Assembly: GCA_045648945.1 (NCBI GenBank)
Contig: JAZROX010000027.1
Location: 8,898 to 72,897, forward strand
Direction of reading: 5' to 3'
DNA from: Candidatus Enterousia sp.
Lineage (GTDB): Bacteria; Pseudomonadota; Alphaproteobacteria; Rs-D84
DNA length: 64,000 nt
The translations under genes were made by a program, and so were the position numbers. Below are positions 17,082-41,936 of the stretch, in pieces. Numbering within the stretch: position 1 is the first letter of the stretch; each line of letters starts with the position of its first letter. Below the pieces are notes generated by a model, which saw only the letters and a program-made list of their open reading frames with translations, had not been told where the DNA came from and did not search any database.

Positions 17082-17094
17082 TTTTTTACCTTTT

Positions 17095-17907: not shown

Positions 17908-17928
17908 AAGTTAGCCATAGGTTAGCCA
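17908..17928 (+). repeat. AAGTTAGCCATAGGTTAGCCA (two GTTAGCCA units), identical to the motif upstream of int
   Basis: Identical 21-mer at 10902-10922. Confidence 0.8.
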
Positions 17929-18013
17929 GACGGTTTTGGCAAAACAAGAGCACCCGCCACAACCTGCGGAAATATGGGAATTTTATAAGTTTTATATCTT
18001 ATAAGTCCTGAAA

Positions 18014-18126: not shown

Positions 18127-18207
18127 TCCGTCTCTGCATAGCAGAGCCGCGATTATGTTCGCGTGTATCGTGCGAACTATCCGCCGGGGCATCATTATTT
18201 AATTAAA

Positions 18208-18672: not shown

Positions 18673-19327
18673 CACAACGAAACAGGCCTTTCCGGGATAC
18701 AACGCCGAACAAGAAAGAATAGTACAGCAAGAACAAGAACGCGTGGTACGCGAAAGAAAACGGGCGGAAAGCCTGCCCCCGTTTTTGATGGTAAGGGCGG
18801 GTTTGTTGAATCAATGGGTGTGGCCTTTGATTTCCGGGGGTGCATTTATTGGATTGGGAATCAACGAAGAAAAACTTAGACAACCAGAATTGCTTTTGGG
18901 AACCACCAGCATTCTAGTCGCCTTGACATTCGCCTGGGCCACCTATGCGACCCCGGAAATACAAAAGGCGTTTAAAAAAGACATTTGGACAATACGCCAA
19001 GAAACAAACAGATATATGAATGAATCAAATTATCAAATTGATTTAACCGATAAAATCAACAGTGATAAATTGGCGCGGATTCTGGTGCAACATATTTCAA
19101 AATATAACCCGGGGTTGTTTGATAAAATGATGCAAAATCCGGATTCGGTTGCCGATATAAATGTGGCAGAAAATATTATACTGGGGCATTTGAAATCGCA
19201 TCCAGATGCCGCACAAAAAATTCTAGATACATTTGATATTGAAACAATGCCGACAAAAGTTCAAAGAAAAGTGAACAGATACGCAAACAATTTGCGCAAT
19301 TATATGTCCAGCCAAAAATCAAGATAA
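18662..19327 (+). CDS. Hypothetical membrane-associated protein
   Basis: 221-aa ORF overlapping the previous stop. One or two hydrophobic segments (WVWPLISGGAFIGLGI; LLLGTTSILVALTFAWATYA). Confidence 0.6.
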   Translation: MNSDTTKQAFPGYNAEQERIVQQEQERVVRERKRAESLPPFLMVRAGLLNQWVWPLISGGAFIGLGINEEKLRQPELLLGTTSILVALTFAWATYATPEIQKAFKKDIWTIRQETNRYMNESNYQIDLTDKINSDKLARILVQHISKYNPGLFDKMMQNPDSVADINVAENIILGHLKSHPDAAQKILDTFDIETMPTKVQRKVNRYANNLRNYMSSQKSR

Positions 19328-19334
19328 CAAAACC

Positions 19335-19355
19335 GGCGCATAAGTGCGCCGTTTT
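19335..19355 (+). terminator. Rho-independent terminator
   Basis: GGCGCA-TAAG-TGCGCC followed by GTTTT. Confidence 0.6.
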
Positions 19356-20961: not shown

Positions 20962-20962
20962 C

Positions 20963-20992
20963 AAAAACATCCGCGTTTGCGGATGTTTTTTG
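20963..20992. terminator. Bidirectional terminator between convergent genes
   Basis: AAAAACATCCGC-GTTT-GCGGATGTTTTTT. Confidence 0.7.
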
Positions 20993-21007
20993 TTCGTGAA
21001 ACGATTA

Positions 21008-24020: not shown

Positions 24021-24049
24021 AAAAATCCCCATGTTTTGGGGATTTTTTT
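24021..24049. terminator. Bidirectional terminator
   Basis: AAAAATCCCCA-TGTT-TTGGGGATTTTTTT. Confidence 0.7.
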
Positions 24050-25598
24050 AATTCACATTTACCGTATCATCGTATATGGAATACGTCACACCGCCATATT
24101 TGACCTTTAATTTTTGCGTGGTGCCAACGTTCATAGGCACATCCGCCGTCGTCATATTTCCATAGAATATATCATTTCCGACCCGCACATGCATCGCCGG
24201 CGTGGTCTTTTTTACGCCATGCAAATACAAAGTCGCGTCGCCAAAGTGCAAAATGTGTCCGCATTGGTTCGCATTCGACATCCCCGCCGGCGAATAAAGC
24301 CCGGCCGCACACGCGGCTATACCCTGGGACGCCGAGGCGTTAAAATCATAGGTGCCGCCGGTGCAATATGAACCCGCCGCGCACGCAGTGCATTCGTTAT
24401 ACGCCGCCGGCAAATACGTTCCCGCCGCACATGTTTGGGACGCGGTCACCCGGCACGAAACATGCCCGCCCCAGTAATCTTCGTAACCAGTAATATACTG
24501 CGTCATACCCGCCGGACATGTAGTGGCAAGATTTGTATCATCAAATGTTGACAGCCACATATTGTTTGCATACGTAGAACCATTCGCGATTAATCCCGCA
24601 AAAGCGGATGGCGGAATATACCCGGTAACATTGTAACATTTGGCAAATGTTCCACCAAATGCGTTAGACCCGACCTGTGTAAGCCCACTAAAAATTTCTG
24701 ATGGGATTGCTGTTATTCCGGTATGAGCAAATGTATTTTGAAACGCATAGTTAGCTGCGTATGTAATGTTAGCAAACAAATTATTCGGTATATGGGTTAA
24801 CCTTGAACAATCATGAAAAGTGTTAGAAAATACAAACCAATCTGCTCCAGTTATGCCACTAAACAGATTATCTGGTAAACTGGTTAACAAATCACAGGCA
24901 TAAAAAGCCCCTTCAAACATACCACCGGCCACAAAATTTTTGACACTACTAAATAAATTTTCCGGTATTGATGTCAAACCAGACCTCGCAAAAGTGTAAG
25001 AGAACATATAATACGTACCCTGGATATTATTATAAGAACCAAATAATGTTCCTGGTATCTCACTCAAATTTTGTGCACCATTAAATGTCAGAAAAAAATT
25101 TGGCAATGAAGTATCATTACTATTTCCGGAAAGGTATGGGAACATAGCAGACAAATCGCCATATACGGAGGCAATTTTTTCCTCTGAATGATAATCGACA
25201 TTATAAAATTTTATTACTGCCACCTGTTGGGTGCTTGATCTATACCAACCCGTGGCAACGCCGCCCATACGAATTGTTTTGACGCCGCCGGTGGAATATG
25301 TGCATGTGTACAGTGTCTCGGTCGTGCCTGTGCGGGTTATTGTATCACCCGAAACCCCGTCGCCGGATAATGTTCCGTCATCACCGCAATCAACATAGAA
25401 TGTTCCCATCGCGGACATATAAAACCCAAATGTATCATTCGCGGAAAGTGACGTCGTCGTAAGGCTGAATTTCGCCGTTTGGCAATTTGAACCATCGCCC
25501 GCGACATCAATCTGGTCCGATGTGCACGCCGCATTGGCCGCGGGGCTCGCGAACGCGCCCAACATTATCACCAAAAACGCAACCAAAAATTGCTTCAA
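24048..25598 (-). CDS. Secreted BspA-type LRR protein (~516 aa), short paralog of 6121-10467
   Basis: TTG at 25598 is homologous to the TTG start of the large paralog and gives MKQFLVAFLVIMLGAFASPANA. N-domain CTSDQIDVAGDGSNCQTAKFSLTTT.., LRR F..C..LTS(I/L)P.NLF, C-terminal domain CGHILHFGDATLYLHGVKKTTPAMHV..SIYDDTV. The ORF is open to the GTG at 25652, but that stretch is occupied by a repeat element that is non-coding elsewhere. Confidence 0.8.
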   Translation of the reverse strand: MKQFLVAFLVIMLGAFASPAANAACTSDQIDVAGDGSNCQTAKFSLTTTSLSANDTFGFYMSAMGTFYVDCGDDGTLSGDGVSGDTITRTGTTETLYTCTYSTGGVKTIRMGGVATGWYRSSTQQVAVIKFYNVDYHSEEKIASVYGDLSAMFPYLSGNSNDTSLPNFFLTFNGAQNLSEIPGTLFGSYNNIQGTYYMFSYTFARSGLTSIPENLFSSVKNFVAGGMFEGAFYACDLLTSLPDNLFSGITGADWFVFSNTFHDCSRLTHIPNNLFANITYAANYAFQNTFAHTGITAIPSEIFSGLTQVGSNAFGGTFAKCYNVTGYIPPSAFAGLIANGSTYANNMWLSTFDDTNLATTCPAGMTQYITGYEDYWGGHVSCRVTASQTCAAGTYLPAAYNECTACAAGSYCTGGTYDFNASASQGIAACAAGLYSPAGMSNANQCGHILHFGDATLYLHGVKKTTPAMHVRVGNDIFYGNMTTADVPMNVGTTQKLKVKYGGVTYSIYDDTVNVN

Positions 25599-25631
25599 AT
25601 TATTCTCTCTTTTCTTTCTGGCGTCAATAAT

Positions 25632-25678
25632 CACTACCCCCCGGTGTTCCACACCGTACCCCTTCGCCAGCGAAGGGG
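25632..25678 (-). repeat. Composite hairpin element, copy E6 (leader of the LRR gene)
   Basis: The minus strand reads CCCCTTCGCTGGCGAAGGGG, then TACGGTGTGGAACACCG, then GGGGGTAGTG. Confidence 0.65.
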
Positions 25679-26010: not shown

Positions 26011-27768
26011 ATGAAAGAATATATTTTACCTTGTCGTGATTTGGTTGTGCATCCGGGAATGACCGTGCCGGCCTATGTGGATAACCCCATATCGATTGCG
26101 TGTGTTGATATTGCCGCGTCTACGCGCCAACGGATAATTATTGCGCCACAACACAGTGCCGCGTATCCCGCCGCGCCCGAAGACATATACGAATATGGCA
26201 CAATTGGCGAAATTGCCCAGGTTCTGCGTATGCCCGACGGAACAATACACACCATCGTTCGTACAACAAATGTTGTGCAAATGAGTGATATTGAAATAAA
26301 CGACGGGGTATTTTCTGCGCGTGTGTTAGAGGTTCCCATGATGAACGATATGGAAGACGAACGCACGGTTCAAATGCGTGAAAAAATTTTTGAAACCATC
26401 CAGGCGATGTCTCTATTCCGTAAATTCAAGGCGGATAAATTGCGCAGCACGATTCAAAGTTACCCGATGCCCGCGTTTATTGATTCTGTCATTCAAACGA
26501 TGGAAATTGATACCGACACGGCCGTCAAAATTTTAACCACGCCATCGTGGTACGATAAAATGGTAATGCTGTTTGAACAGGTGCGGTTGGCGTACGAAAC
26601 GTCCAAGGTTGAAGACAGTATCAATCGCCGCATCAGTATGCAGATGGAACAAGGCCGTCGTGAAGCGATTCTGCAGGAAAAAATGCGCGCAATTCAAAAA
26701 GAAATGGGCGAAGACGACGGCGAAAACGATACCGCCAATATGCGCAAAAAAATCGAAAAATCCGCTATGCCCGCCGATGTTAAAGAAAAGGCCTTGTCCG
26801 AATGGAAGCGTATGCGTAACATGTCGCCGATGTCCAACGAGGGCGGTTTGATAAAAACCTATTTGGACGAATTGTTGGCTATGCCGTGGGGCAAATCGGA
26901 TAAAACACAAATTGATTTAAACACTGCGCGCAAAATATTGGACAGTGAACATTCCGGAATGCGCCCGGTCAAAGAACGTATACTGGAACACATTGCCGTT
27001 ATGAAAAAAACCGGCTCTGCCAAGGGGACCATCCTGTGCTTTGTTGGTGCGCCGGGCGTTGGCAAGACGTCGTTGTGCAAATCTATTGCGGCCGCGTTGG
27101 GACGTAAATATCACCGCATATCATTGGGTGGCGTTTCAGACGAGGCGCATTTCCGTGGTCACCGCAAAACCTATATCGGGTCCCAACCGGGACGTATTAT
27201 GGACGCATTGAAACGCGTCAAGGCAAACAACCCGGTCATTGTTCTGGACGAAATTGATAAAATGGGACGCGATTGGCGTGGCGATCCAGAATCCGCCTTG
27301 TTGGAAGTATTGGACCCAGAACAGAACAAAGCGTTCCGCGACCATTATCTTGAGGTGGATTTTGACCTGTCCAACGTTATGTTTATCGCGACCGCGAACA
27401 GTTTGAATTTGTCGGGCGCATTAAAAGACCGTATGGAAATTATCGAGATTCCGGGTTACAGTGAAGACGACAAAGTACAAATTGCCCGCGAACACTTGAT
27501 TGCGCGTGCGGCGAATGACACTGGGTGGAATCCAGAAAACATTCAAATTTCCGATGACGCAATTCGGCACATAATTCGTAAATATACGGCTGAGGCCGGT
27601 GTGCGGCAACTGCAACGCGAATTAACGGCGATTCTGCGGCGGCGCCTATTGGAAAATGACGGCGAAGATGTGGCAACGGATTTCACAATCGAAAAAATCG
27701 ACGATTTATTATCGCTGCAACAATCGGCCGGATTTTCAAAGCGCATAGGGTTCGGGGTAAGTATCTAG
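26011..27768 (+). CDS. lon: Lon-like AAA+ protein: LON N-domain plus ATPase, lacking the S16 protease domain
   Basis: 585 aa. LPCRDLVVHPGMTVP.., Walker A GAPGVGKTSL, LDEIDKM, ALLEVLDPEQNKAFRDHYLEVDFDLSNVMFIATAN, AGVRQLQREL. It stops at ..RIGFGVSI, where the E. coli Lon peptidase domain would begin. Confidence 0.85.
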   Translation: MKEYILPCRDLVVHPGMTVPAYVDNPISIACVDIAASTRQRIIIAPQHSAAYPAAPEDIYEYGTIGEIAQVLRMPDGTIHTIVRTTNVVQMSDIEINDGVFSARVLEVPMMNDMEDERTVQMREKIFETIQAMSLFRKFKADKLRSTIQSYPMPAFIDSVIQTMEIDTDTAVKILTTPSWYDKMVMLFEQVRLAYETSKVEDSINRRISMQMEQGRREAILQEKMRAIQKEMGEDDGENDTANMRKKIEKSAMPADVKEKALSEWKRMRNMSPMSNEGGLIKTYLDELLAMPWGKSDKTQIDLNTARKILDSEHSGMRPVKERILEHIAVMKKTGSAKGTILCFVGAPGVGKTSLCKSIAAALGRKYHRISLGGVSDEAHFRGHRKTYIGSQPGRIMDALKRVKANNPVIVLDEIDKMGRDWRGDPESALLEVLDPEQNKAFRDHYLEVDFDLSNVMFIATANSLNLSGALKDRMEIIEIPGYSEDDKVQIAREHLIARAANDTGWNPENIQISDDAIRHIIRKYTAEAGVRQLQRELTAILRRRLLENDGEDVATDFTIEKIDDLLSLQQSAGFSKRIGFGVSI

Positions 27769-28256: not shown

Positions 28257-28658
28257 ATGGAAATTTTTGAGGCAGTAAAAATTTGCAATGATATAAAAAA
28301 ATTACGTCGGAATTCTGGTGTAGAACTGCGTTATGAATGCTGGGAAACACATGATAAGACGTGTTATACTGTGGGTGTTATTGGTTATTATATTTACGGT
28401 ATCAATTTGGAAAAAAAACAGACAACACATAATATCATTATCGCCGAACGTCACGGAATACATTTTTCGGACACCAAGTATGATAGGTTTGGTATTGAAG
28501 AACTGGAACCGGTTAGTTTTACTATGAAAATGAACGACAGCCGCGGTCTGTTAAAACATGGTCTTTATAAAACAACCGAAACTGGATTGCCGGCGCGCAT
28601 TTTATATCATAGACTTAAAAAAGAATATGCCAAGCAACAACGAGGGCGACAAAAATGA
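28257..28658 (+). CDS. Small orphan protein, family A, member 2
   Basis: 133 aa. Paralog of 27779-28186. SD GGGAGG lies upstream. Confidence 0.6.
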   Translation: MEIFEAVKICNDIKKLRRNSGVELRYECWETHDKTCYTVGVIGYYIYGINLEKKQTTHNIIIAERHGIHFSDTKYDRFGIEELEPVSFTMKMNDSRGLLKHGLYKTTETGLPARILYHRLKKEYAKQQRGRQK

Positions 28659-29194
28659 TATTTATTATAAACACTTCGGGGGCGGGATTGGAATTTGTGT
28701 TGGATGGTAATCACAAAGCCGTCACAGTGGAAAAACAGTCGGTCGCCTTGGCCACGGCGGCGGAATCTTTCTTGGCCGAATGTGGCGCAAAGTGGCGCGA
28801 CATAACCGCGATTGGCGTTGTCGTTGGCCCCGGCAGTTTTACCGGAATTCGTATGGGAATCGCATACGCCAAGGGTTTGGCCATGGGGTTGAACATCCCG
28901 ATTGTTGGCATTAATGCGTTCGAATTGTATTTGGCGGATGCGCCCGACGCGTTTGTCGCAATTGATTCGGGACGTGGAGATTTCTTTGTGGCGTCACCAC
29001 AACATGCGCCATGCACAATGACAATTGAAGAATTGGAAACCGAACAGATGAAATGTCCGTGCACGGTTGGCCATAAACCATTTGATTTGAAACGGGGAAT
29101 TGAAATTGTTCGTAAAAAATTAGAGTGCGGCAATTTGGAACCCGTGGTGCCAATGTATCTGCGGCCCAGTTATGCAGAGAAAAAGGATAAATAA
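28655..29194 (+). CDS. tsaB: tRNA threonylcarbamoyladenosine biosynthesis protein TsaB (YeaZ family), short form
   Basis: IGVVVGPGSFTGIRMGIAYAKGLAMGLNIPIVGINAFE is the TsaB signature. Confidence 0.85.
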   Translation: MIFIINTSGAGLEFVLDGNHKAVTVEKQSVALATAAESFLAECGAKWRDITAIGVVVGPGSFTGIRMGIAYAKGLAMGLNIPIVGINAFELYLADAPDAFVAIDSGRGDFFVASPQHAPCTMTIEELETEQMKCPCTVGHKPFDLKRGIEIVRKKLECGNLEPVVPMYLRPSYAEKKDK

Positions 29195-30291: not shown

Positions 30292-31560
30292 TTATTTACC
30301 TACAAATTCCAACACACGCGGGTCAAAGATAACATCACGGGGCGACAAAGGCCTTGCAACATGCATATCGGCCGCGGCACGCGTGCGCGACAGTGCGACA
30401 TAGGTTTGGCCGTGTTCAAATGCACCACGCGAAATATCAACAACCACGGAATCCAATGTTTTACCTTGGGCTTTATGAATGGTCATTGCGTATCCCAATG
30501 CCAACGGGAATTGTTTATATGCGCCGGTTTCATGTTCAACCAATCGATCATTTTCGTCACGAAGATATTCAACCTTTTGCCATTTTTCGGGACGAACAGA
30601 AACGGTATCACGTTCCCGATTTAACAATTGTATAATGATTTCGCGTGCGCCCAATTTTTGCACTACGCCCATAGAACCGTTGTGCCATTTGTCGCCGTTT
30701 TTAACAAAGACGACCAATGCGCCGACCTTTAGTTCCAGATTCATTGGCGCCGGGACATCGCGTTCGGCAAAATTGCCCGACAATTCGCCATTATAGAAAA
30801 CAGAATCCGCGGCAATTTGTCCGAGGCGTTCGGCATTTATACGTTCCGCCACCGCCCGAAATGGTGTTATCAATACCGAATTTGCGCGACGCGCGTCATC
30901 CGCGATTCTGCACGCGTTAAAGAAACCAATTGCGGACGCATCGCCACCGCGCAACGCGTTTAATTTTTCCAATAATTCTGTGTCGTTTTGACGATAAACC
31001 AAATCGAAATTAAACCGAACAAAATCTGCGCGCCGAAAAACATTGCTGTCAAAGAAATACGCGCGCGAATTGCCGTATTCATCTGCATAGTATTTTTGCG
31101 CGTCACGTGTTATAACCGGCGGTAATTGGAACAAATCACCAATCGCGACAACCTGGATTCCGCCAAAGGGTTCATTGTTTTTCCGCGCGCGGCGGCACAG
31201 GATATCCATCGCATCCATCAAATCGGGCGCAATCATTGAAACTTCGTCCAAGACCAATATATCGGTCGCGGTCAAAACATTCCGGACCCGCGCCTTTAAT
31301 TCCAAAAATTCCGGAAAAATAAAATCGCGCGGCAGAATCTGGAACAAAGAATGAATTGTCGCGCCACCGATATTCAACGCCGCCACCGCCGTCGGACACG
31401 CACACACAACCCGCTTGGTCGTTGCAGATTTAAGGTAATTGACAAAGGTCGACTTTCCGGTTCCGGCACTGCCCAGAATCAACACATTGGAATTTGTGCC
31501 TTCGATTGTACGAAAGGCGGCCATTTGTTCGGGGCTTAAAATTGGAACGATTTCAGACAT
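30292..31560 (-). CDS. PIF1/RecD-like superfamily 1 DNA helicase
   Basis: ATG at 31560. Walker A GSAGTGKST, Walker B LVLDEVSM, C-terminal AMTIHKAQGKTLDSVVVD. The ORF-track N-terminal extension runs through the TAGTGG repeat array. Confidence 0.8.
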   Translation of the reverse strand: MSEIVPILSPEQMAAFRTIEGTNSNVLILGSAGTGKSTFVNYLKSATTKRVVCACPTAVAALNIGGATIHSLFQILPRDFIFPEFLELKARVRNVLTATDILVLDEVSMIAPDLMDAMDILCRRARKNNEPFGGIQVVAIGDLFQLPPVITRDAQKYYADEYGNSRAYFFDSNVFRRADFVRFNFDLVYRQNDTELLEKLNALRGGDASAIGFFNACRIADDARRANSVLITPFRAVAERINAERLGQIAADSVFYNGELSGNFAERDVPAPMNLELKVGALVVFVKNGDKWHNGSMGVVQKLGAREIIIQLLNRERDTVSVRPEKWQKVEYLRDENDRLVEHETGAYKQFPLALGYAMTIHKAQGKTLDSVVVDISRGAFEHGQTYVALSRTRAAADMHVARPLSPRDVIFDPRVLEFVGK

Positions 31561-31613
31561 AGCGGCATTTTGGCATAAACGGCCACGGAAATAAAGAGAA
31601 AAGTAACCGGCGT

Positions 31614-31647
31614 TAGTGCTTAGTGTTAGTGGATAGTGGTTAGTGGG
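31614..31647 (+). repeat. TAGTGGN heptamer array (5 units)
   Basis: TAGTGCT TAGTGT TAGTGGA TAGTGGT TAGTGGG, 53 nt upstream of the helicase start codon. Confidence 0.8.
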
Positions 31648-31715
31648 TGTTTTATGAAAATAAGCACCAATTTTTACTTGCAAGTAAAAAAGAAATGTAT
31701 AATAATATTGCCGTT

Positions 31716-31849: not shown

Positions 31850-31880
31850 CCACGCCGCACCCGCGGCGTGGTTTTGTTTT
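31850..31880 (+). terminator. Rho-independent terminator after the tRNA
   Basis: CCACGCCGC-ACCC-GCGGCGTGG followed by TTTTGTTTT. Confidence 0.7.
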
Positions 31881-31946: not shown

Positions 31947-32015
31947 ATGAATATTTTTTTCTTGCATTGGTATAGTACTTTTTTCTAAACTGATTACAAA
32001 CGAAAGGGAGAAGAA

Positions 32016-35000
32016 ATGAAAATTCTGCGGATTTTCGGGCTGTTTGCGTTGTTTTTATGTACGGGTTTTGGTTACGCACATGCCGGAGATGAATATTATT
32101 CTTTCACGCTGAATGATAACGGAGGCAGCGGGGGCAGAGTTATTGGTAATAAAACGGACGGCTTACTACACTACGGAGTGGCGTGGGGGTATAATGAGGA
32201 CAGAGGATTCGAAGCGCTTCCGGGGGCTGGTAACACCCCGGTCACCTCGACTAATCCGCCCGTGATTACTGAAGCACCAACAACAACGGTCCCACACGTG
32301 CATTTTTATGGTTATGCACTTGATCAAAATTATACTATTTCAAATACCGAGAACAGAATTATAAATTCTGCCAGACAATTTTTTACAGACCAACGGGCAT
32401 TAACGTCTTTTAGACAGAACAATACCACGCTTTACGCCATATGGGCACCAAATAATTATCAGATACAATTGGATGACAACGGCGACAACATAACAAGAGC
32501 TGGCCAGGTGTATTCAAGTTCTGGGTATTCATTATATAAACGATATGGAACTGATTGTTTTATCGTCGCCCCTACACTCAACACTAATGAGTTAGAGCAA
32601 AATACATGTATTTCTTCAATATATCAAACGCCACAGAGGACCGGTTATACATTTGCGGGATATTGGACGGTTTCACAAGGTACCGGCGGCACAATGATTG
32701 TAAAACCAAATGGTGATTTCGAAACTGGTACAAGCACCACGTTCACCCAGAATTCAACAATATATGCACGGTGGACGCCAAAAGTTTTAACGATCACGTT
32801 GGATAAAAATAATTCGACAAGTGGTGCTACAGATTCCAACCCGACGACCGTATATTTGAAATATAACACCGGGTGGTTCAGTGATGCGACGGCAACAACA
32901 TCCATTTCGCATCTGACCACAAATCCGGAACGTCCGGGGTACACTTTTGGTGGATTTACAAAACGTGCAAACGGCGGGACCCAGGTTATAGACTCATCGG
33001 GTGAATTTTTAACCACAACCGCGGCATTAACGGTATTAAGCGAGAACGGATCCATATACGCACAGTGGACGGGACAAAACACATATACCATTCAATTGCG
33101 GTCAAACGGTGGCGATATTGACTATGCAATATATCACCGAAATGGGAATTTCTATTGCGAGTCGTCGGCAACAACACAGATTCTATCGACTCAAAACATA
33201 TTTGACAGATGTAGTTTTACCAAGCCGTCTTCGGCCGCGGGCGAATTTGACGGGTATTGGTCCGCCACATCGGCCGGATCGCAATACATTGACCGCGAAG
33301 GGAAAATACTGTATAATTCCACCGTCACCGGTGGTATGCGGTGGTATGCCCAATACCAGGCCACATGCGGCAGTTTGATTGCGTTAGAACCGAATGGCGG
33401 AAGTTTTTCCGGAATATGCAGTGGGTTTGCGCCGACACCTGTGCAAAACAACAATGGGGATTGGGTGTTGCAACCACTGGGCAATGGATGTAGACCGACA
33501 CAAAATGGCGTAACATTTGCCGGATATTATTACTATGATGAAAACTCAGGCACCTATACACAATATTATGACGATAGTTTGACCGCGGTTGGCACGTGGC
33601 CGTTTTGCAATGAAGACAAAGTTGTATTGATTGCATTATGGAACCATGGAGGTTGTAATTGTGGAGAATACATACCGGCGGGTTATGTGCAGTGTGTAGA
33701 ATGTCCGATTGGATCGTATTGTTCCGGGGTTATATCGAACCAGGTTCCGTATAACGCCGACCAAGGAATCGAATCTTGCGCCAAACAGTGTGGCGGCAAT
33801 GGATATACATCTGATGCCGGGGCATGTAATATCAACGAATGCTATCAGGCATGTAAAACGGATTGCATGCGGCCAAATGATTTTTGCGCCGTCCCGTCGG
33901 CGGAATGCCAATATACTAATTCTTCGGTTGATGGCAAAGAATATTGTAACACTAACACCGGGTGCCAAATTCCCAACACAAATGCAAGTTGGTGCGAAAT
34001 TTCCAGTTGCCCGGCAAATTCGTACTATGATGACCCGTATTGCAAAGCTTGTAATTCCGGGTTCTCTAACAATGGTGGCATGGGCGGGGCGGACACATGC
34101 GTAAAGGATTGTTCTGTCCAATGCACATGGGATGATAACATGTGTCCAGCCAACGCAACATGCACACACACACAATCCAGTTTAAGTGGAAATGTAAACC
34201 AAACACAAGACCAAGACAAATGTTATTCTGGTGGCAACCAAATTATGCCATTTGCGTGTGAGTTCAGCTTTACGTGTAATGAAGGGTATGAATGGGATTC
34301 GACGACGAACCAATGTGTAATGACACCAACATGTGACACCCAGGTAACACTTAACCCGGACAGCGGCAACGGTGGCAGTTTTGCCAGTAATTGCACATAT
34401 GGCACATCGGCATTAACACTGACACTGAACACGAACGACAATCAATGGTATTTAGGACCGTCGTCATTACCGGCCGGTTGCGCTGCGACGCGTGATGGGT
34501 ATACTTTTGCCGGATATACATATAATAACAATCGGTATTATGCTGATAATTTAAACGTTGTCTCTAACCAACCATGGGACGCATGCAATTTAAATAGTGC
34601 GGTTTTAACGGCGGATTGGACAGCAAAGTGTAACGAGATAACATTTAATGAGAACTATGGAAACAACGGTATTATATCGGGTGTATCGCAACACAAACTA
34701 ACCGCGGATACGGATTGGTATGACGGCACCTGCAAGAGTACCGTGACCGCAAGCGTAACGTCACTGGACACTACCGGACACAGAGTGTTCAAAGGATTCT
34801 ATTTATCATCGAATAATACAGATAATACGGACCAAGTGTTTGATGCCAGTGGTGCCCCTACAAATTATGGTAACAACTGGACGATTAATGCGAATACCGT
34901 GCTGTACGCGCATTGGGATTGCGATACGGGGTATGAATGGGATTCGACGACGAACCAATGTGTAGAACAAGGACCAAAATCAGCATGCGATAGTACAGCG

Positions 35001-38000
35001 ACGCTTGATCCAAACGGTGGGGATTTTACTAATACAAACACATGCAGCGGTGAAATAAACCCAATATATGATTTTTCAACAAACACATGGTCAGCCCCGG
35101 CCAGTTTGAATGCGGGATGTAGGCCGATACGGACCGGATATACTTTTAATGGGTATGTTGGGGAGAATAATGGACCGATGTATTATGATAGCAACTTGTA
35201 TCGTTCAACACCGTTATGGCCAAATAATTGCAATGTTGCCAAAATCAACTTGGTTGCGGGTTGGACCGGTAATTGCATGGAAATACAATTTGATGATAAT
35301 AATGCCGCTGGCACCAATGTCAACAGCCAGAACCATCAACATAAACAAATCGGAAATGCCGCATGGATGGACACCACATGTGGGAAAGAGTTACTAAACA
35401 CCCCAACGGCGTACACACCGACGAACGACCATGCAACATTTTTAGGTTATTATACAGAAAAGAATTCAACCAGTGGGATCCGGGTTTTTGACGGTCATGG
35501 TAACGCGACCAGTGCCGGAAACGGTTGGACAATTTCTGGGACGGCCACATCGCCGGTTACCCTGTATGCCCGTTGGGATTGCGATACGAATTATAATTGG
35601 GATTCGCAAACAAAAGCATGTGTTCAAAAACCGTATGAGGTCCGGGTTAAATGTAATCCAGAGGATACAAACATTCTTACATTAACTTATTTAGCGTACA
35701 ACGAATCCATGGAATTCTCAGATGCATATTTAGCAGAGGCATGTAAAAACGCCCCCCGGTGTAATACAAATTGGCAACAAGAAGATTGGAATATATATTT
35801 GAATGCCGCTTTGACGCAGTTATCGAATGATTCTCCGCATGCCACACCAATAACAATTACCGGTGGGGACTATAATAATGCAACAAAGATAACATTTGTT
35901 CCGAACTGTGTGGAAGATACATATTCTGTAAAATACAAATGTTATAAAGACGATTCAAATGGTAAGGTGGACAACGAAGTTCCGCATTCAAATTATACTG
36001 TGCAGCCAATACGTTGGTATGAAGACTGCAAAATCAACGAGAATTCTTCTATGCCCGATTATTTCAATGGATGGTTATTTAGCGGTGATGGTACTGAGTA
36101 TAGCGAGGGTGACACTATATCAAATTGGTCGTATGGAAACAATGCAACATTTGTGCCGGTGTATAATGCGACATTTGATTGCAACACAGATCATTGGCAG
36201 GCACCCAGTGGCGGGAATCCAACGACACAAACGGTAGTACTGGGCGACAGTATGACCATGCCGGCAATGAGTTGTGTGCCGAAATCGGCATACGCCGGAT
36301 GGGTAAATACAAATTCGGAATGGAACACGATCTATGCCGCGGCAATGGAGACCCCGGTTCCAAGTGCAACGTGTTCAGCGGGCAACGTCACGGCCAATGG
36401 TGGCACGACATTTAATTGGAACTGTCCGACGAATTTGACCTTTACACCCGACGATGAATTGATAACAAAAACCATCGAAATCAGTTGCGGCACCGGCGGG
36501 ACCACGGGCACAATTGAGATAACATACGACACCCAGAACCAAACGTCAACCATGGTCAATAATTGGCTGCATGACAATTGCGGTGGTCATTGCCACAATC
36601 CGTCTGGTGATGCACGTGGATATTTGAAATTCTGTGGCACGTGGGGAAACAACGCGGTTCCGAACGTAACACAAATACCGGGGACCAATTGTTGGCGCGC
36701 AGAGCGGGATTATAACCTGAATCAAATTAACTGGGCAAATGTGACCGAGTTTAATATAACCGCAATATCGCATTGTCCAAAATACGTCAATTATAAATGC
36801 AGTGCGGACGCCACAGAGGTTTATAATGAACCGCCCTACTCCTATATGGAAGATGAATATCGCGTATTAGATCACTCGACGGTTGGGTGCGATGGTTATG
36901 GATATGAATTGGAAAACTGGGTCAAAGAAGATGATGAAAGTGTGACCTTTGACGAGAACGAAACCGTTGCATCATGGCCGTACGACGAATCGATTACGCT
37001 GGTTGCACAATGGAAATACTGTCCGGATGGACAATATTGGGATGAAGCCACCGGCACATGCCTGAGTTGTGCGGAAAATACCGGTAATCAATATAAACTA
37101 AGTAAAGCCCCATATAATTGGAGTATTGACCAATGCTATCGCAAATGTTCGGAAACCTGTGTGAACACAGACGTAACACAGCTTTACACCAGTTACGATT
37201 TACAGAAATTCGAAAGTGATAATCTCCAGGTTGAATTCTATGGAAATAGCACAATGAATCCCGGGACATGTGGGCATGTTACATACTGTCCGTATGTCAT
37301 CAAGGATGGCGACACATATGTATTCAAGGTTCGTGGTGTTCCGGTGAACTTTATCGATAATAATAATGCTACCGTTGATACATACCATATTGTTGGTGCG
37401 GGCAACACATCTGATGATGTGGCGGCGGCATTCCTGTGGAGTCAGATTGTCGGTTCGGCCCAGAAGTATCAGTTCACGGTTTCGGGCAATACCCATTATT
37501 CTGTGCCGATTGTGTATCCAATATACAGCGCACCGTATAATGAACCGGCCGGATATACGTTCAATGGATATTACAATCCACGTGGCGGACACAAATATGT
37601 CCAGGACGACGCGGAATTAAGCAAAACCATTGCCCAGAGCGCGGTTGATGGAATTAACGCTGCGACCGGTGATTTGCACCGCGACCTGTATGCGGGATAT
37701 GATTCAAATGAATACACCGTAACATATCAATGTGGTGCCGGGTCGGGGGCGGACACCACAAACACTGCAACATACGGTGACGGATATGACGTTCTGTACC
37801 TTGCAGATACGCCTTGTCAATATACTGGACACGATTTCTTGGGTTGGAAATATATGAATGGTACCGATTATGATGAAGGCGAGCATTTCACGTGGGAATA
37901 TACGGACGCAAATCCAACGTTCACCGCACAGTGGAGTGGCGTGAACACGTATAATATTATCTATGAAAATATGACGAATGCCGAAGCATCCGCGACCGGC

Positions 38001-41000
38001 ATGCCAACAACATACGTGTATGGAACGGGTGCGACGATAAACGGTGTACCGACACGGCCGCTTAGCGAATTCCAGGGTTGGTGCACAGATGCAAGTTTAG
38101 AACACTGTGCGATGACACAAACAATTTCTGCGTCCGAAACCGGCGATAAAACATTCTGGGCGAAATGGGAATGTATAAGCCCGTATCATTCTAATCCAGA
38201 AGGCACAGCGTGTGTGGCATGTCCGGACGACACTTGGTGGAATTCGTCGACACAACACTGCGATCCTTGTCCGCAAAACTTCCCGCACAGTAAACACCCA
38301 ATGACATGGAGTGAAGGGCAATGTTATCGCGAATGTCCGACGAATACTGCCCTGGGTACGCCGGGACAAACGTGTAGAACCGATCCTGATATGGGCGCCT
38401 TTAGCGTATGCACCGGAATGGTAAAGTTCGAAGAATTTGCCAATTCGAACGGACGACAGATTGAATTCAAGGGTAATTTTGACGACGGTCAAAATACGTG
38501 CAATGCGGTTGAAAACGTGTATTGTCCGCGTGGTATATCTGGGTGCCCGTTGAATACCGCATTCAAACCAATGACCGCACCGGTCGAATTCCATGGAAAA
38601 ATCCCAGAAGAAAACCTTGGTGCACGGTACATATTCGGTTCGCGCGGCGGGCATGACACAATTGATTTGTCCAGCAACGATTCCAACAAAATATGGAGCT
38701 TTATGGCGGGTCCGGGTCAAAAGACCGACGTGATACACAACGAGGTTGGTGGTGTTATGACGGATTATTACTATACACATATCATATACCCAACATACAA
38801 TGCCCCGGATGCCGAGGTTCCAGGATACACATTTAATGGATACTATTATCCACGCACCGGTGGAGAACAGTATGTTGCCAGCGATTACGCGTTGAACGCG
38901 ACCAATGCACAATCTGTATTAGGCAGTCAGTCCGGTGATTCGAACACGGCGCGCCACTTGTATGCAACGGTGGGTAATGGATATACCCAAAACGAATATT
39001 CTATCACTTATAGTTGCGGCACAGCAACGGGCGGAACGGTGCCGGAATCGCAAACCGGTATACACATTAATCAATCTGTAACACCGCGTGAAAACACATG
39101 CGAAAAACCGGGGTATGAATTCCAGGGATGGATTGTGTCGGGCACGGATGAGGTTAAACCCGCGGGAGCCGCCGGGACATTTACGTGGGAATATACGGAA
39201 TCCAAAACATTCACTGCAAAGTGGAATGATGACCCGATTGCATATAACATCAATTATCATAACACTGATAATGCGACATGGGGGACAGGCAATCCTCCGA
39301 ACACTTATACGGTTACCAATTTGCCATTGACTATCGACGCAGCCATGACACGCCCGCACAGCACATTTATGGGATGGTGCACGGATGCGGCATTAACAAC
39401 CAACTGTGAAATGACACACACTATACCGGTGGGAACAACCGGCGATGTAGATTTCTGGGCAAAATGGGAATGTGTGCCGCCATATCATTCTAACCCCGCC
39501 GGCACGGCGTGCGAGGCATGTGATGCCGGACAATATTGGAACGGTGTCCAATGCGAATATTGTTCGACCACAGGATTCCCGAACAGCACACCGCCATTCA
39601 ATTGGAGTGCGGATCAATGCTGGCGTTCATGTCAAAATGATGTGCAATGCGCGGTTCCATCTGCATCAATCATAGGCAACATCGGTGGTTGCAGTGCCCA
39701 GGCATTCCGGAACACGGCCGGCACACAAATTGAATTCAAGGGGAATCATGATGCGGGTGTGCAAACATGCGATGCGACGAATGTGCCGTATTGTCCGTAC
39801 GGTTTGGACTGTTCGGCCGAAAACGTCGATATGCCAAGATCGGTTATGGCAGATTTCCATTCTGGCGAAGGGTGGCCAAGCGTTGGGACACGTCACGTCA
39901 TCGGATTGGGGAACTGGTCCACGGGCGCCAACAACGGAACCATGGTCAGTGGTAATATGTGGAGTGCGATTGTGGGCCCGGCACAAAAGATGGAATTGGA
40001 TGACCACAACCCGGATGATCAATATACATTTATAACGTATCCGGCAAATGTGGCACCAACCGCCACCGCGGTTTCGGGTCAAATATTCAAGGGATATTAC
40101 GATCAACAAACCGGTGGAAATAGGCGCGTCGATGATGATTATGAACTGAATGCGGAAAACGCACAGGGTGTTGGTGTTACAATGAGCAGCCTTATACCCG
40201 GCGACAGAAACCTGTATGCGCGTTGGCAACAATGTGACGTGAACACATACCAGCATAACAATGAATGCATACATTGCAACGAAGGTTTCACATCGCCCGT
40301 CGGTGCATCCGGACCCGAGGAATGCACAAAAAGTTGTTCTGTGGCATGCGAATGGGACGATTCTATGTGTCCAGATCACGCAAGTTGCACCCATACAGAG
40401 GCCAGTCAAATCGGTATTGTAAATCAGATACAAGCCCAACAGGCCCAAGGAACATGTTATCACGAAACAACCAATGAACCGATTTTTCCAGAACAGTGTG
40501 TGTATCAATTTACCTGTGATGATGGTTATGGCATAATGGGGAATAGATGTGTGCCATGCGAGGACGGAGAATATCTGGAAAATGGCAGATGTACAGCATG
40601 TCCGAACGGTTATCCGTACTCTGATGCAAATGCAACCCAACAGACGCAATGCTATAAATCTTGTCAACATGATTGTGACGAACCGACCTGTCCGATTGCA
40701 AGTGGAACCGGAACATGTACATATACGCATGAAGCAACAAATGGTAAATGGTATTTTAATTCAAATGTGTGCATCGCCCAATCTTCTATATGTCAGATGA
40801 CACTTAGTTGCTATGACGGATATACATTGGAGGGGAACGAATGCAAACCGACTAAATATACAATCACCTATAAATCAAACGAGGATGCAACACAAAACGA
40901 AACCCAGGAAGTCACATATTCCGAAAGTTTCGAAACCAAGGGGGCGATATTCACAAGTCCGGGTTATATAATGACCGCGTGGTCTGCACCGTATACGTTA

Positions 41001-41936
41001 TTAAAGCATGAATATCCCGCGTATAATACCCCGTATGACACTACTTTGATTGCGCAATGGGAAATGTGTCCGGCCGGAACATATCAAAACGCCAATACCT
41101 GTACGGATTGTCCGGATGGTTACAGATCCGATGCGGGCGCGTCCGGACAAAACCAGTGTTATCGTTCATGCGAAAAGCCGTGCGATGATGTGCTGTGTCC
41201 AGAACATTCTGTTAGTTGCGAAAAATCAAAAGAAACATTTGATGGCATACAGTACTATGAGGCACCATGTGTCGCCGAAACACAGCAATGCAGAATTCTG
41301 AGCGTTATATGCGATGCGGGATATTATCAAGATGGAACGAAATGCGAACCGTGTCCGGAAAATTATTCTTCCATCCGGGGTGCGGTCGGGGTGGACGCAT
41401 GTTTCTTGGTCAGTTGCCCGGATGGTCAACATGTTGAATACGGCGAATGCAAAGATGACGTTATTCCATGCGATGCGCCAAACGCAACCAATGCCTCACG
41501 AAAATGGAATGAAACGTTGCGTGCATATGGATCATGCATAGTTGCGGCATGCGAAACCAACTATCACGTTGCATCAAATGCGTGCACGGCGGATACACGG
41601 GCCTGCGCCGTTGAAGGCGGTCGTGGTGAACAGGTATGGGACGGCAACAAATGGGGTGATTGCGAAATCACACAATGTAATCCGGGATTCATAGACAATG
41701 GCAACACGTGTGTTGAATGCCCGAACCGTCGCGTCGATGGCGAAATCGCGGTCAGCAGTTATGCAACAGAATGCGAAATCGCAAGTTGCATGTACCAAGG
41801 TCAAAAGTATGCACTTGAAGGCGACAGATGCGAACCGATATGTAATAAACCGGATGATGGGACCGGCCACATGGAATGGAATGAAAGTCAAAAGAAATGT
41901 GTACGTACATGTAACCCGGGTTACAAAATGTGGTAG
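32016..41936 (+). CDS. Giant secreted protein (3306 aa): Listeria-Bacteroides (Flg_new-type) repeats interleaved with eukaryote-like Cys-rich (ephrin-receptor/GCC2_GCC3- or furin-like) repeats
   Basis: Uninterrupted 9.9 kb frame. SD GGGAGAAG. Signal peptide MKILRIFGLFALFLCTGFGYAHA. Many GYTF.GY(Y/W)...Y(A/T).W units. Many C..C..G.Y / C..CP.G units, for example CTDCPDGYRSDAGASGQNQCYRSC. Confidence 0.9.
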   Translation: MKILRIFGLFALFLCTGFGYAHAGDEYYSFTLNDNGGSGGRVIGNKTDGLLHYGVAWGYNEDRGFEALPGAGNTPVTSTNPPVITEAPTTTVPHVHFYGYALDQNYTISNTENRIINSARQFFTDQRALTSFRQNNTTLYAIWAPNNYQIQLDDNGDNITRAGQVYSSSGYSLYKRYGTDCFIVAPTLNTNELEQNTCISSIYQTPQRTGYTFAGYWTVSQGTGGTMIVKPNGDFETGTSTTFTQNSTIYARWTPKVLTITLDKNNSTSGATDSNPTTVYLKYNTGWFSDATATTSISHLTTNPERPGYTFGGFTKRANGGTQVIDSSGEFLTTTAALTVLSENGSIYAQWTGQNTYTIQLRSNGGDIDYAIYHRNGNFYCESSATTQILSTQNIFDRCSFTKPSSAAGEFDGYWSATSAGSQYIDREGKILYNSTVTGGMRWYAQYQATCGSLIALEPNGGSFSGICSGFAPTPVQNNNGDWVLQPLGNGCRPTQNGVTFAGYYYYDENSGTYTQYYDDSLTAVGTWPFCNEDKVVLIALWNHGGCNCGEYIPAGYVQCVECPIGSYCSGVISNQVPYNADQGIESCAKQCGGNGYTSDAGACNINECYQACKTDCMRPNDFCAVPSAECQYTNSSVDGKEYCNTNTGCQIPNTNASWCEISSCPANSYYDDPYCKACNSGFSNNGGMGGADTCVKDCSVQCTWDDNMCPANATCTHTQSSLSGNVNQTQDQDKCYSGGNQIMPFACEFSFTCNEGYEWDSTTNQCVMTPTCDTQVTLNPDSGNGGSFASNCTYGTSALTLTLNTNDNQWYLGPSSLPAGCAATRDGYTFAGYTYNNNRYYADNLNVVSNQPWDACNLNSAVLTADWTAKCNEITFNENYGNNGIISGVSQHKLTADTDWYDGTCKSTVTASVTSLDTTGHRVFKGFYLSSNNTDNTDQVFDASGAPTNYGNNWTINANTVLYAHWDCDTGYEWDSTTNQCVEQGPKSACDSTATLDPNGGDFTNTNTCSGEINPIYDFSTNTWSAPASLNAGCRPIRTGYTFNGYVGENNGPMYYDSNLYRSTPLWPNNCNVAKINLVAGWTGNCMEIQFDDNNAAGTNVNSQNHQHKQIGNAAWMDTTCGKELLNTPTAYTPTNDHATFLGYYTEKNSTSGIRVFDGHGNATSAGNGWTISGTATSPVTLYARWDCDTNYNWDSQTKACVQKPYEVRVKCNPEDTNILTLTYLAYNESMEFSDAYLAEACKNAPRCNTNWQQEDWNIYLNAALTQLSNDSPHATPITITGGDYNNATKITFVPNCVEDTYSVKYKCYKDDSNGKVDNEVPHSNYTVQPIRWYEDCKINENSSMPDYFNGWLFSGDGTEYSEGDTISNWSYGNNATFVPVYNATFDCNTDHWQAPSGGNPTTQTVVLGDSMTMPAMSCVPKSAYAGWVNTNSEWNTIYAAAMETPVPSATCSAGNVTANGGTTFNWNCPTNLTFTPDDELITKTIEISCGTGGTTGTIEITYDTQNQTSTMVNNWLHDNCGGHCHNPSGDARGYLKFCGTWGNNAVPNVTQIPGTNCWRAERDYNLNQINWANVTEFNITAISHCPKYVNYKCSADATEVYNEPPYSYMEDEYRVLDHSTVGCDGYGYELENWVKEDDESVTFDENETVASWPYDESITLVAQWKYCPDGQYWDEATGTCLSCAENTGNQYKLSKAPYNWSIDQCYRKCSETCVNTDVTQLYTSYDLQKFESDNLQVEFYGNSTMNPGTCGHVTYCPYVIKDGDTYVFKVRGVPVNFIDNNNATVDTYHIVGAGNTSDDVAAAFLWSQIVGSAQKYQFTVSGNTHYSVPIVYPIYSAPYNEPAGYTFNGYYNPRGGHKYVQDDAELSKTIAQSAVDGINAATGDLHRDLYAGYDSNEYTVTYQCGAGSGADTTNTATYGDGYDVLYLADTPCQYTGHDFLGWKYMNGTDYDEGEHFTWEYTDANPTFTAQWSGVNTYNIIYENMTNAEASATGMPTTYVYGTGATINGVPTRPLSEFQGWCTDASLEHCAMTQTISASETGDKTFWAKWECISPYHSNPEGTACVACPDDTWWNSSTQHCDPCPQNFPHSKHPMTWSEGQCYRECPTNTALGTPGQTCRTDPDMGAFSVCTGMVKFEEFANSNGRQIEFKGNFDDGQNTCNAVENVYCPRGISGCPLNTAFKPMTAPVEFHGKIPEENLGARYIFGSRGGHDTIDLSSNDSNKIWSFMAGPGQKTDVIHNEVGGVMTDYYYTHIIYPTYNAPDAEVPGYTFNGYYYPRTGGEQYVASDYALNATNAQSVLGSQSGDSNTARHLYATVGNGYTQNEYSITYSCGTATGGTVPESQTGIHINQSVTPRENTCEKPGYEFQGWIVSGTDEVKPAGAAGTFTWEYTESKTFTAKWNDDPIAYNINYHNTDNATWGTGNPPNTYTVTNLPLTIDAAMTRPHSTFMGWCTDAALTTNCEMTHTIPVGTTGDVDFWAKWECVPPYHSNPAGTACEACDAGQYWNGVQCEYCSTTGFPNSTPPFNWSADQCWRSCQNDVQCAVPSASIIGNIGGCSAQAFRNTAGTQIEFKGNHDAGVQTCDATNVPYCPYGLDCSAENVDMPRSVMADFHSGEGWPSVGTRHVIGLGNWSTGANNGTMVSGNMWSAIVGPAQKMELDDHNPDDQYTFITYPANVAPTATAVSGQIFKGYYDQQTGGNRRVDDDYELNAENAQGVGVTMSSLIPGDRNLYARWQQCDVNTYQHNNECIHCNEGFTSPVGASGPEECTKSCSVACEWDDSMCPDHASCTHTEASQIGIVNQIQAQQAQGTCYHETTNEPIFPEQCVYQFTCDDGYGIMGNRCVPCEDGEYLENGRCTACPNGYPYSDANATQQTQCYKSCQHDCDEPTCPIASGTGTCTYTHEATNGKWYFNSNVCIAQSSICQMTLSCYDGYTLEGNECKPTKYTITYKSNEDATQNETQEVTYSESFETKGAIFTSPGYIMTAWSAPYTLLKHEYPAYNTPYDTTLIAQWEMCPAGTYQNANTCTDCPDGYRSDAGASGQNQCYRSCEKPCDDVLCPEHSVSCEKSKETFDGIQYYEAPCVAETQQCRILSVICDAGYYQDGTKCEPCPENYSSIRGAVGVDACFLVSCPDGQHVEYGECKDDVIPCDAPNATNASRKWNETLRAYGSCIVAACETNYHVASNACTADTRACAVEGGRGEQVWDGNKWGDCEITQCNPGFIDNGNTCVECPNRRVDGEIAVSSYATECEIASCMYQGQKYALEGDRCEPICNKPDDGTGHMEWNESQKKCVRTCNPGYKMW
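37020..40220 (+). repeat. Three diverged tandem super-repeats (~1.2-1.3 kb each) inside the giant gene
   Basis: Units begin CPDGQYWDEATGTC.. (~37020), ISPYHSNPEGTACVACPDDTWW.. (~38171) and VPPYHSNPAGTACEACDAGQYW.. (~39471). Each continues ..IEF(K/Y)GN..YCP..(I/V)(I/T)YP.Y.AP...GY.F.GYY. Confidence 0.7.

Follow-up and report, generated by a model that had tools for sequence, protein, structure and literature searches.

How might a bacterium with two membranes export a cysteine-rich protein of 3306 amino acids, and what might such a protein do once outside? The question is raised by a single gene in a 64,000-nucleotide stretch of DNA (the window) from a Candidatus Enterousia sp. genome of the alphaproteobacterial order Rs-D84 (GenBank assembly GCA_045648945.1, contig JAZROX010000027.1, positions 8,898 to 72,897 of the forward strand). 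A preliminary description, made from the letters alone, had noticed in it one 9.9 kb frame that opens with a signal peptide and alternates Listeria-Bacteroides (Flg_new) repeats with eukaryote-like cysteine-rich repeats, and had found the export and anchoring of the product not evident. We lean towards reading the giant protein as a disulfide-stiffened surface fibre, an adhesin, of this Ca. Enterousia-like Rs-D84 alphaproteobacterium. The preliminary description was right in that no known anchor is present; what it overlooked is a conserved C-terminal domain of ~210 residues, and the export question is now narrowed to this one defined domain.

The frame is one genuine secreted-protein gene. 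It is intact from start to stop, it is preceded by a ribosome-binding site, and its N-terminus, judged by eye, shows the basic residues and hydrophobic core of a Sec substrate, with A-H-A as the cleavage motif (Table 1), all of which agrees with what had first been noticed. The signal peptide is the sole hydrophobic stretch of the protein, and the same type of N-terminus is found in the homologues. A terminator-like hairpin (31850-31871) closes a tRNA-Met gene 5′ of the giant gene, whose GC content (0.44-0.50) is the same as that of its surroundings. The mature protein has a mass of ~360 kDa, a pI of 4.4 and 165 cysteines (a content of 5%), and is rich in T, G, N and Y. Anchoring as a lipoprotein was considered and rejected: the cysteine of the signal peptide lies in L-F-L-C with no lipobox, and is absent in most homologues.

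The C-terminal domain is the feature that defines the family. The first search with the giant protein gave 120 homologues (P-numbers; P0001 is the window protein), of which 55 share a cysteine-rich ending of the form ...CEIASCMYQGE.Y.L..NEC.PIC...DETG...W....KKC.RTC.PGY..W; the motif G-[YF]-x-x-W likewise forms the protein end in 55 of the 120, and the last residue is W in most members checked. When the 54 W-tail homologues are aligned to the window protein, 52 match it best over its last 300-470 residues, so that in these the domain is the part under the strongest conservation. An alignment of the domain (A1; 20 sequences with 31-51% mutual identity) contains 33 invariant columns, including 18 cysteines and the final W, and the window protein has all of them. 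As a word-index homologue search with A1 returned 27 short fragments only, we used an exhaustive HMMER search of 1.84 billion representatives (clusters at 50% identity) instead, which yielded 838, 507 and 308 representatives at E ≤ 1e-3, 1e-10 and 1e-30, respectively. The window protein itself matches over aa 3027-3306 (305 bits, E 5.1e-86), and among the best 150 representatives listed the match stops exactly at the last residue in the great majority.

Modelling of aa 3096-3306 with AlphaFold2 (AF2) gives a chain of short beta-hairpins, all beta, with predicted local distance difference test (pLDDT) scores of 85-98. No Pfam or NCBIfam model covers the domain, and Foldseek returned no match to the model at E ≤ 1e-3 (best E 1.4e-2, TM-scores 0.1-0.3); the non-significant top list consists of cysteine-rich domains of the tumour necrosis factor receptor (TNFR) family (DcR3, 4-1BB, DR6, CD40, TNFR1/2), NELL2 EGF domains and the EphA2 cysteine-rich domain. 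An identity as a Sushi or complement control protein (CCP) domain was also tried and rejected, the vaccinia complement control protein and C1s matching at E 0.018-0.17 and in a different cysteine register. In a few proteins a ~100-aa sub-module of the domain (profile positions ~102-205) occurs as an internal tandem array (P0148, with 18 stretches, P0149, P0241, P0251 and P0263), indicating that part of this 'tail' domain is itself a repeat unit. By its position and conservation the domain is the obvious candidate for a sorting or anchoring element.

Profile matches indicate that the C-terminal domain defines a family of several hundred proteins that is almost confined to this lineage. A scan of species-representative genomes (one per GTDB species) gave 163 confirmed copies, and nearly all of the best 80 belong to Ca. 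Enterousia or to metagenome-assembled genomes of uncultured Alphaproteobacteria from rumen and gut, the hosts being ruminants, deer, chickens and humans; several genomes carry two copies. The profile can serve as a lineage-specific handle for finding all such proteins. Two loci stand under other names: contig CAVGNU010000005.1, titled Bacteroides fragilis, has the giant gene beside PIF1, Lon and TsaB genes of Enterousia type (products 71-74% identical to those of the window), and contig CALXAO010000146.1, titled uncultured Clostridia, has it beside the usual HI0933-like gene, so that both contigs are probably mis-binned or mislabelled.

Within this lineage the gene keeps its place while its sequence changes. 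Genes for Lon, TsaB, (acetyltransferase, RadC) and a PIF1-like helicase, the last on the opposite strand, precede the giant gene in this order in the window, in three of the related loci (L-numbers; L001-L003) and in dozens of further loci. Measured against related genomes, identity is 94-97% for RNase G and 70-90% for Lon, as compared with 33-64% for the giant protein. In the closest genomes, with RNase G at 95-97% identity, the blocks of the giant gene are collinear and differ in module copy number. Complete genes at this position encode ~920-3400 aa, several open reading frames (ORFs) truncated by contig ends exceed 3500 aa, and some loci hold two or three tandem paralogues. These comparisons identify the giant gene as a fast-evolving positional orthologue whose versions differ by module gain, loss and divergence. 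A fixed locus together with rapid divergence and matching GC content is the hallmark of a protein that is exposed, diversifies quickly and is inherited vertically, and a gene that stays in place yet diverges far faster than its neighbours is the best candidate for a structure in contact with a partner.

The lineage is suspected to depend on a partner. Members of Ca. Enterousia, in the order Rs-D84, have genomes mostly <1 Mb, lack both respiratory chain and tricarboxylic acid (TCA) cycle, and have been proposed to live in dependence on a partner (PMC12306168); the giant proteins go unmentioned in that study, and we found no description of them in the literature on Enterousia/Rs-D84, bacterial GCC2_GCC3 or InlB B-repeats. 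These bacteria occur widely in the rumen and in the guts of livestock, birds and humans, and if the genome is of typical size the 9.9-kb gene makes up ~1% of it. Consistent with its assignment, the window encodes an alphaproteobacterial two-piece tmRNA, as well as diderm-envelope genes for MlaE/F/D and an auxiliary lipoprotein, a BepA-like M48/TPR protease and an autotransporter-type barrel.

Between its two ends the giant protein is built from two kinds of repeat. That one of these is the Flg_new repeat, as had been proposed, is borne out by both curated models, PF09479 (40.6 bits, E 2.8e-10, 5 stretches; Pfam gathering cut-off 27) and TIGR02543 (43.1 bits; NCBIfam cut-off 20.95). A strict regular expression (units of ~65-70 aa with the core G-Y-x-F-x-G-[WY] and the closing [LIVY]-x-A-x-W) finds 11 matches, and a hidden Markov model (HMM) derived from the protein itself recognises units all along the sequence, 16 of them clear and 4 marginal. 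The repetition is nested, and three N-terminal Flg_new units recur when fragments are compared with the protein itself by BLAST. Each copy of the ~215-aa super-repeat comprises two Flg_new units followed by a C-x2-[GN]-Y-x-W-D-S-x-T-x2-C hairpin, the two copies being 36-44% identical. A full copy of the ~430-aa super-repeat consists of one GCC2_GCC3-like module (aa 1669-1711, 2069-2107 and 2502-2539 in the successive copies), a ~160-aa domain and three Flg_new units; AF2 modelling of one such unit (aa 2055-2501, alignment A3 of 8 sequences) gave a mean pLDDT of 47, with the last Flg_new unit alone confident. Self-BLAST further resolves cysteine-rich supermodules of ~100 aa (aa 595-768, 2740-2845, 2848-2945 and 3018-3113). 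Those of region 2 each combine a GCC2_GCC3-like module with a second cysteine-rich half, and the AF2 model of the last supermodule of the protein (aa 3018-3095) reaches pLDDT 77-84 in its first 30 residues and is disordered in its second half.

To which family the cysteine modules belong is less direct, as the whole protein matches nothing in Pfam or NCBIfam besides Flg_new at E ≤ 1. Eight modules follow the pattern C-x2-G-x-[YWF]-x(2-9)-C-x2-C-x(6-32)-C-x3-C, and the three strings quoted as examples in the preliminary description lie at aa 560-569, 2751-2774 and 3029-3052. When the modules are scanned singly, eight out of nine give weak matches, and these are exclusively to Ephrin_rec_like/GCC2_GCC3, TNFR_ELAPOR1_6th, TNFR_c6, NCD3G and the Giardia VSP family. 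None of the modules in the giant protein attains the PF07699 cut-off of 23.1 bits (six score 18.9, 18.4, 16.4, 16.2, 15.6 and 14.1), the TNFR-like models PF23091 and PF00020 give 13.8-18.7 bits against cut-offs of 33.2 and 29.4, and one module has a weak match to VSP (PF03302; E 0.0016, 17.9 bits against 31.4). Cysteine-rich region 1 matches Ephrin_rec_like at E 0.0047 (17.1 bits), again under the cut-off. Relatives of the protein score higher: the orthologue P0003 (60% identical) passes PF23091 with 70.2 bits in 8 stretches, P0100 passes PF07699 with 25.4 bits, and precomputed matches in relatives comprise PF07699 (P0040 and P0100), PF23091 and PF07562, with a faint PF07699 match in the tandem paralogue at locus L003.

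A profile of 20 cysteine modules (A2) was also searched against all PDB sequences. Its top match is human thyroglobulin aa 1462-1514 (type-2, GCC2_GCC3 repeats; E 1.7e-5), followed by the Chlamydomonas mastigoneme protein Mst1 (annotated as ephrin-receptor-like; E 0.027), in which A2 matches 16 stretches, the cysteine-rich domain of CaSR and members of TNFRSF. Two column-shuffled versions of A2 gave no PDB match at E ≤ 10, indicating that the signal lies in the ordered pattern of the modules and not in their composition. The solved-structure matches are all eukaryotic. The preliminary description had allowed that an ordinary bacterial family might account for the modules; by profile search no bacterial family in Pfam or NCBIfam, the NCBIfam cysteine-repeat models included, claims them. 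A word-index search with a profile of the ~100-aa supermodule (A4) gave no match, and hence no picture of how the supermodule is distributed among taxa. Since P0003 and P0100 pass the curated cut-offs and A2 matches thyroglobulin with clean shuffled controls, we conclude that the modules are, by profile comparison, divergent members of the ephrin-receptor-like/TNFR superfamily of disulfide hairpin ladders. The kind of repeat had thus been recognised correctly, whereas strict Pfam membership does not extend to this protein (14-19 against 23.1 bits). With this family, modules of the GCC2_GCC3/TNFR type, whose descriptions otherwise come from eukaryotic surface proteins, gain a clear example in bacteria.

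A trace of how the repeats may change is preserved within the gene. Its longest exact DNA repeat is 36 nt, in comparison with 12-15 nt in 30 codon shuffles, and the island is sharp, with 100% identity over 12 codons and 8-42% in the flanking 12-nt windows. The repeat had been reported before, with its second copy placed one base off at 34928-34963 (34929-34964 is correct), and had been taken to indicate recent intragenic recombination, a reasonable though putative reading of the island. The repeat encodes the GYEWDSTTNQCV hairpin, with which one unit closes and the following one opens. The island would be accounted for by a micro-conversion or by the end-point of a recent duplication, and a direct repeat of this kind could mediate gain or loss of the 645-nt unit.

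How the protein crosses and is held at the outer membrane is not answered by any known signal. It lacks an LPXTG motif (an LPxxG-like string occurs at aa 68 only), RTX nonapeptides and, beyond the signal peptide, any hydrophobic segment, including at the C-terminus. Pfam and NCBIfam scans show no PF03797-type barrel, no type IX secretion (T9SS) tail and no match to a sortase, exosortase or rhombosortase sorting signal. Motif, hydrophobicity and profile scans are thus in accord with the initial view that a barrel, an RTX/type I secretion signal, LPXTG and a Por domain are lacking. The protein offers a test case for the export by a diderm of a 360-kDa protein with ~82 potential disulfides and without a known dedicated system.

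Giant repetitive surface adhesins of bacteria are known; what is distinctive here is the combination of eukaryote-type cysteine modules, an undescribed lineage-specific C-terminal domain and a lineage with genomes mostly <1 Mb. The closest counterparts by repeat type are the 'InlB B-repeat-containing' Flg_new giants of gut Bacillota and Bacteroidota, a label that NCBI also gives to members of the present family. Those proteins likewise have tandem Flg_new units, a signal peptide and very large size, but they end in LPXTG, a T9SS domain (P0055, PF18962) or other known anchors and are poor in cysteine (0.4% in P0048, 0.5% in P0055), whereas the protein described here has 5% cysteine, an undescribed cysteine-rich end and a diderm alphaproteobacterial host. 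Type V/autotransporter adhesins share its logic: a Sec signal comes first, the passenger is long and variable, and the C-terminal end is conserved, in the giant protein with an aromatic residue at its close; in contrast to these, the giant protein has no beta-barrel, and its C-terminal hairpin ladder cannot be threaded unfolded through one. RTX adhesins of type I systems lack a Sec signal peptide, whereas the giant protein has one and lacks the RTX motif.

By module type the nearest likenesses are eukaryotic. The GCC2_GCC3 repeats of thyroglobulin (type-2) and Mst1 (PF07699) have the same C-x2-G-x-Y...C-x2-C-P-x-G...C spacing, and Mst1 is also a many-module protein; unlike them, the modules here belong to a bacterium and score below the cut-off, and most carry an extra C-x3-C tail and alternate with Flg_new units. 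TNFR-type domains (PF00020, PF23091) and the NCD3G domain of CaSR are likewise ladders of small disulfide-bonded beta-hairpins, but the Foldseek matches are non-significant and ligand binding of the TNFR kind is unsupported here. Giardia VSPs (PF03302) are similarly CxxC-rich, surface-type and rapidly diversifying. They differ in having a C-terminal transmembrane anchor and in forming a gene family expressed one at a time, as opposed to the one positional gene, sometimes with tandem paralogues, and the absence of a transmembrane segment seen here.

In the model that we favour, the polypeptide would be exported by Sec and its ~82 cysteine pairs oxidised in the periplasm, giving a long, acidic, protease-resistant stiff rod for which many-module Mst1, a protein that builds extracellular flagellar hairs, may serve as a structural analogy. 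The C-terminal domain would then be recognised for passage through the outer membrane, for retention, or for both, and the variable stalk of Flg_new and cysteine modules would point outward and bind the surface of a partner, which might be the mucus or epithelium of a host, a protist or a different microbe. Variation in length and sequence would reflect diversifying pressure on an exposed protein, of which the 36-nt repeat is a possible footprint. Such binding would agree with the dependence on a partner that has been suggested for these bacteria.

Several points weigh against this model. Surface location, adhesion and a binding partner are all predictions, every Pfam match of this protein's cysteine modules is sub-threshold, and the ~160-aa repeated domain of the 430-aa super-repeat is still without a family assignment. 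The role suggested for the C-terminal domain comes from position and conservation alone, and the domain could instead be a conserved binding tip. No export machinery for the protein was found in the 64-kb window, and unbiased clustering of the ORFs of 79 loci revealed no transporter or outer-membrane protein gene conserved beside the locus. The conserved neighbours are housekeeping genes only, namely PIF1, Lon, TsaB, the HI0933-like flavoprotein, Mla, RNase G and a protein that corresponds in size and position to one annotated Pkinase in L001. A bolder version, which we consider rather unlikely, would make the C-terminal domain the recognition or anchor module of an undescribed route that brings very large disulfide proteins onto the Rs-D84 outer membrane, the second, unrelated type of C-terminus seen in two smaller mosaic proteins of the window a parallel module, and the stalk an organelle of obligate attachment to a eukaryotic or microbial partner.

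If the C-terminal domain were a secretion signal or a ligand-binding head, the protein might not be retained at all and could act as a released extracellular component of a matrix or coat, or as a soluble binder. Such a product would need no membrane anchor, lipobox or barrel, and none is present; disulfide-rich folded proteins are typical cargo of folded-protein export routes; and the occurrence of the ~100-aa sub-module inside P0148 and others means that it is not intrinsically a terminal signal. We nevertheless find release unlikely, because a domain that, in most by far of the 150 representatives listed, sits at the exact protein end, and that closes 55 of the 120 homologues with G-[YF]-x-x-W, follows the pattern of a sorting or anchoring element, and a variable stalk with a conserved end is typical of anchored adhesins.

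The eukaryotic affinities of the modules also invite the view that the protein is a host-receptor mimic, with TNFR/ephrin-receptor-like modules taken from eukaryotes that bind ligands of the host or a protist, for instance TNF-family or ephrin-type molecules, as decoys or signalling mimics. The Pfam and PDB matches do point to families with eukaryotic solved members (thyroglobulin, Mst1, CaSR, TNFRSF), TNFR cysteine-rich domains head the Foldseek list, albeit non-significantly, and the window encodes a 678-aa ankyrin-repeat protein, ankyrin repeats being typical of bacteria that interact with eukaryotic cells. These matches are weak and generic, describing a cysteine ladder of beta-hairpins, the GC content of the gene is that of its surroundings, and the modules are spread across a family that is inherited vertically and found lineage-wide, a distribution that speaks against their recent transfer. 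We regard mimicry of this kind as very improbable.

To our mind a shade less tenable still is a periplasmic or envelope-structural protein tied to the Mla lipid-transport operon downstream. The ATG of mlaE (41943) lies 6 nt after the stop of the giant gene with no terminator between, making co-transcription with MlaEFD likely in this clade, and the adjacency is kept in the window's nearest relatives (L004, L006-L010, L012, L014 and L023). In most other genomes, by contrast, an HI0933-like flavoprotein gene follows, and the Mla genes are found several kb further downstream, on the other strand or beyond the fetched stretch; furthermore, a hypervariable rod of 360 kDa is implausible in the periplasm. 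As the adjacency is confined to close relatives, we rejected a functional link to Mla and consider the arrangement clade-specific and probably incidental.

Finally, an assembly chimera or collapsed array of shorter genes, which the metagenome source and internal repetitiveness might suggest, is effectively excluded, since amino-acid identity among the repeat copies is no more than 30-50%, the exact DNA repeats, at most 36 nt long, are shorter than sequencing reads, independent assemblies hold collinear orthologues at the same locus with the same signal-peptide type and C-terminal domain, and P0002 aligns unbroken with 64% identity over 1281 aa; the mosaic first described thus stands as a single gene.

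Table 1. Features of the giant gene and of other genes in the window (positions are those of the window; aa, residues of the giant protein)
Feature	Position	Strand	Basis and remarks
Ribosome-binding site GGGAG	32006..32010	+	Direct sequence reading; 5 nt 5′ of ATG
Giant coding sequence	32016..41936	+	3306 aa; ATG start; no internal stop; TAG stop 41934-41936
Sec-type signal peptide, aa 1-23, MKILRIFGLFALFLCTGFGYAHA	32016..32084	+	Predicted cleavage between MKILRIFGLFALFLCTGFGYAHA and GD, after A-H-A
N-terminal block, ~5 Flg_new-type repeats, aa 68-542	32217..33641	+	HMMs, self-BLAST
Cysteine-rich region 1, aa 547-768	33654..34319	+	GCC2_GCC3-like modules aa 547-592 and 665-699; GYEWDSTTNQCV hairpin at end
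Exact 36-nt repeat, copy 1, aa 757-768	34284..34319	+	Encodes GYEWDSTTNQCV
~215-aa super-repeat, 2 copies, aa 769-985 and 986-1205	34320..35630	+	Self-BLAST, self-HMM
Exact 36-nt repeat, copy 2, aa 972-983	34929..34964	+	Encodes GYEWDSTTNQCV; 645 nt (215 codons) 3′ of copy 1
Middle region, degenerate Flg_new-like units, aa 1206-1654	35631..36977	+	57% identity to P0003, 44% to L006
~430-aa super-repeat, ~2.5 copies, aa 1655-2739	36978..40232	+	Self-BLAST, motif and HMM scans
Cysteine-rich region 2, aa 2740-2950	40233..40865	+	Two ~100-aa supermodules
Last Flg_new unit, aa 2957-3015	40884..41060	+	HMM scans
Last GCC2_GCC3-like supermodule, aa 3018-3095, CPAGTYQNANTCTDCPDGYRSDAGASGQNQCYRSC...	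41067..41300	+	Motif, Pfam and profile scans
Family-defining C-terminal domain, aa 3096-3306, ...CEIASCMYQGQKYALEGDRCEPIC...KKCVRTCNPGYKMW	41301..41933	+	A1, AF2, exhaustive search; 21 Cys
Tyrosine integrase	10945-12183		Low-GC stretch
Toprim/AAA_25 primase-helicase-like protein	13192-15018		Low-GC stretch
Ankyrin-repeat protein, 678 aa	15078-17114	-	Ank_2, 247 bits
PcfJ-like protein	19354-20961		Low-GC stretch
Lon	26011-27768
TsaB	28655-29194
PIF1	30292-31683	-
Autotransporter beta-domain only protein, 351 aa	56305-57360	+	PF03797, 28.2 bits (cut-off 26)

Elsewhere in the window, the 351-aa barrel protein has a signal-peptide-like N-terminus and no passenger domain, and ends ...NIKYLF. It was considered as a partner of the giant protein and set aside, as nothing was found that links the two.

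Two further genes encode the smaller mosaics. The first (6121-10524, minus strand) specifies a second secreted mosaic of 1467 aa with Flg_new repeats (PF09479, 46.6 bits), GCC2_GCC3-like modules such as CEGATYLDNGECVACPDGYTADTTNGKIAASACKIHC and a weak match to a PARCEL/leucine-rich-type repeat. Its C-terminus is of a different conserved type (...HVKFGENIFYANMTTADV...KLKADYGEQTYFIYDDTVDVGNN), shared by ~12 of the 120 homologues (P0005, P0008, P0013 and others). The second (24048-25652, minus strand) encodes 534 aa with no Pfam or NCBIfam match and one GCC2_GCC3-like module; it joins the N-terminal domain of the 1467-aa protein to the same second-class C-terminus (...FYGNMTTADVPMNVGTTQKLKVKYGGVTYSIYDDTVNVN). 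This gene lies between those for tmRNA and Lon, where L001-L003 have just a gene of 74-76 aa. Proteins similar to the 534-aa product are encoded in two of these loci, as an ORF of >6144 aa in L002 (22221-29315, minus strand) that has no Pfam match and runs off the locus, and as a tandem paralogue of 2021 aa in L003 (19421-25486, plus strand) with Flg_new units and a faint Ephrin_rec_like match. Together the three mosaic genes occupy ~16 kb of the 64-kb window. The stretch from 10945 to 21000, which contains the integrase, primase-helicase-like, ankyrin-repeat and PcfJ-like genes, is low in GC (0.37-0.44), includes a tRNA-Arg gene (17795-17871) and resembles an integrated element.

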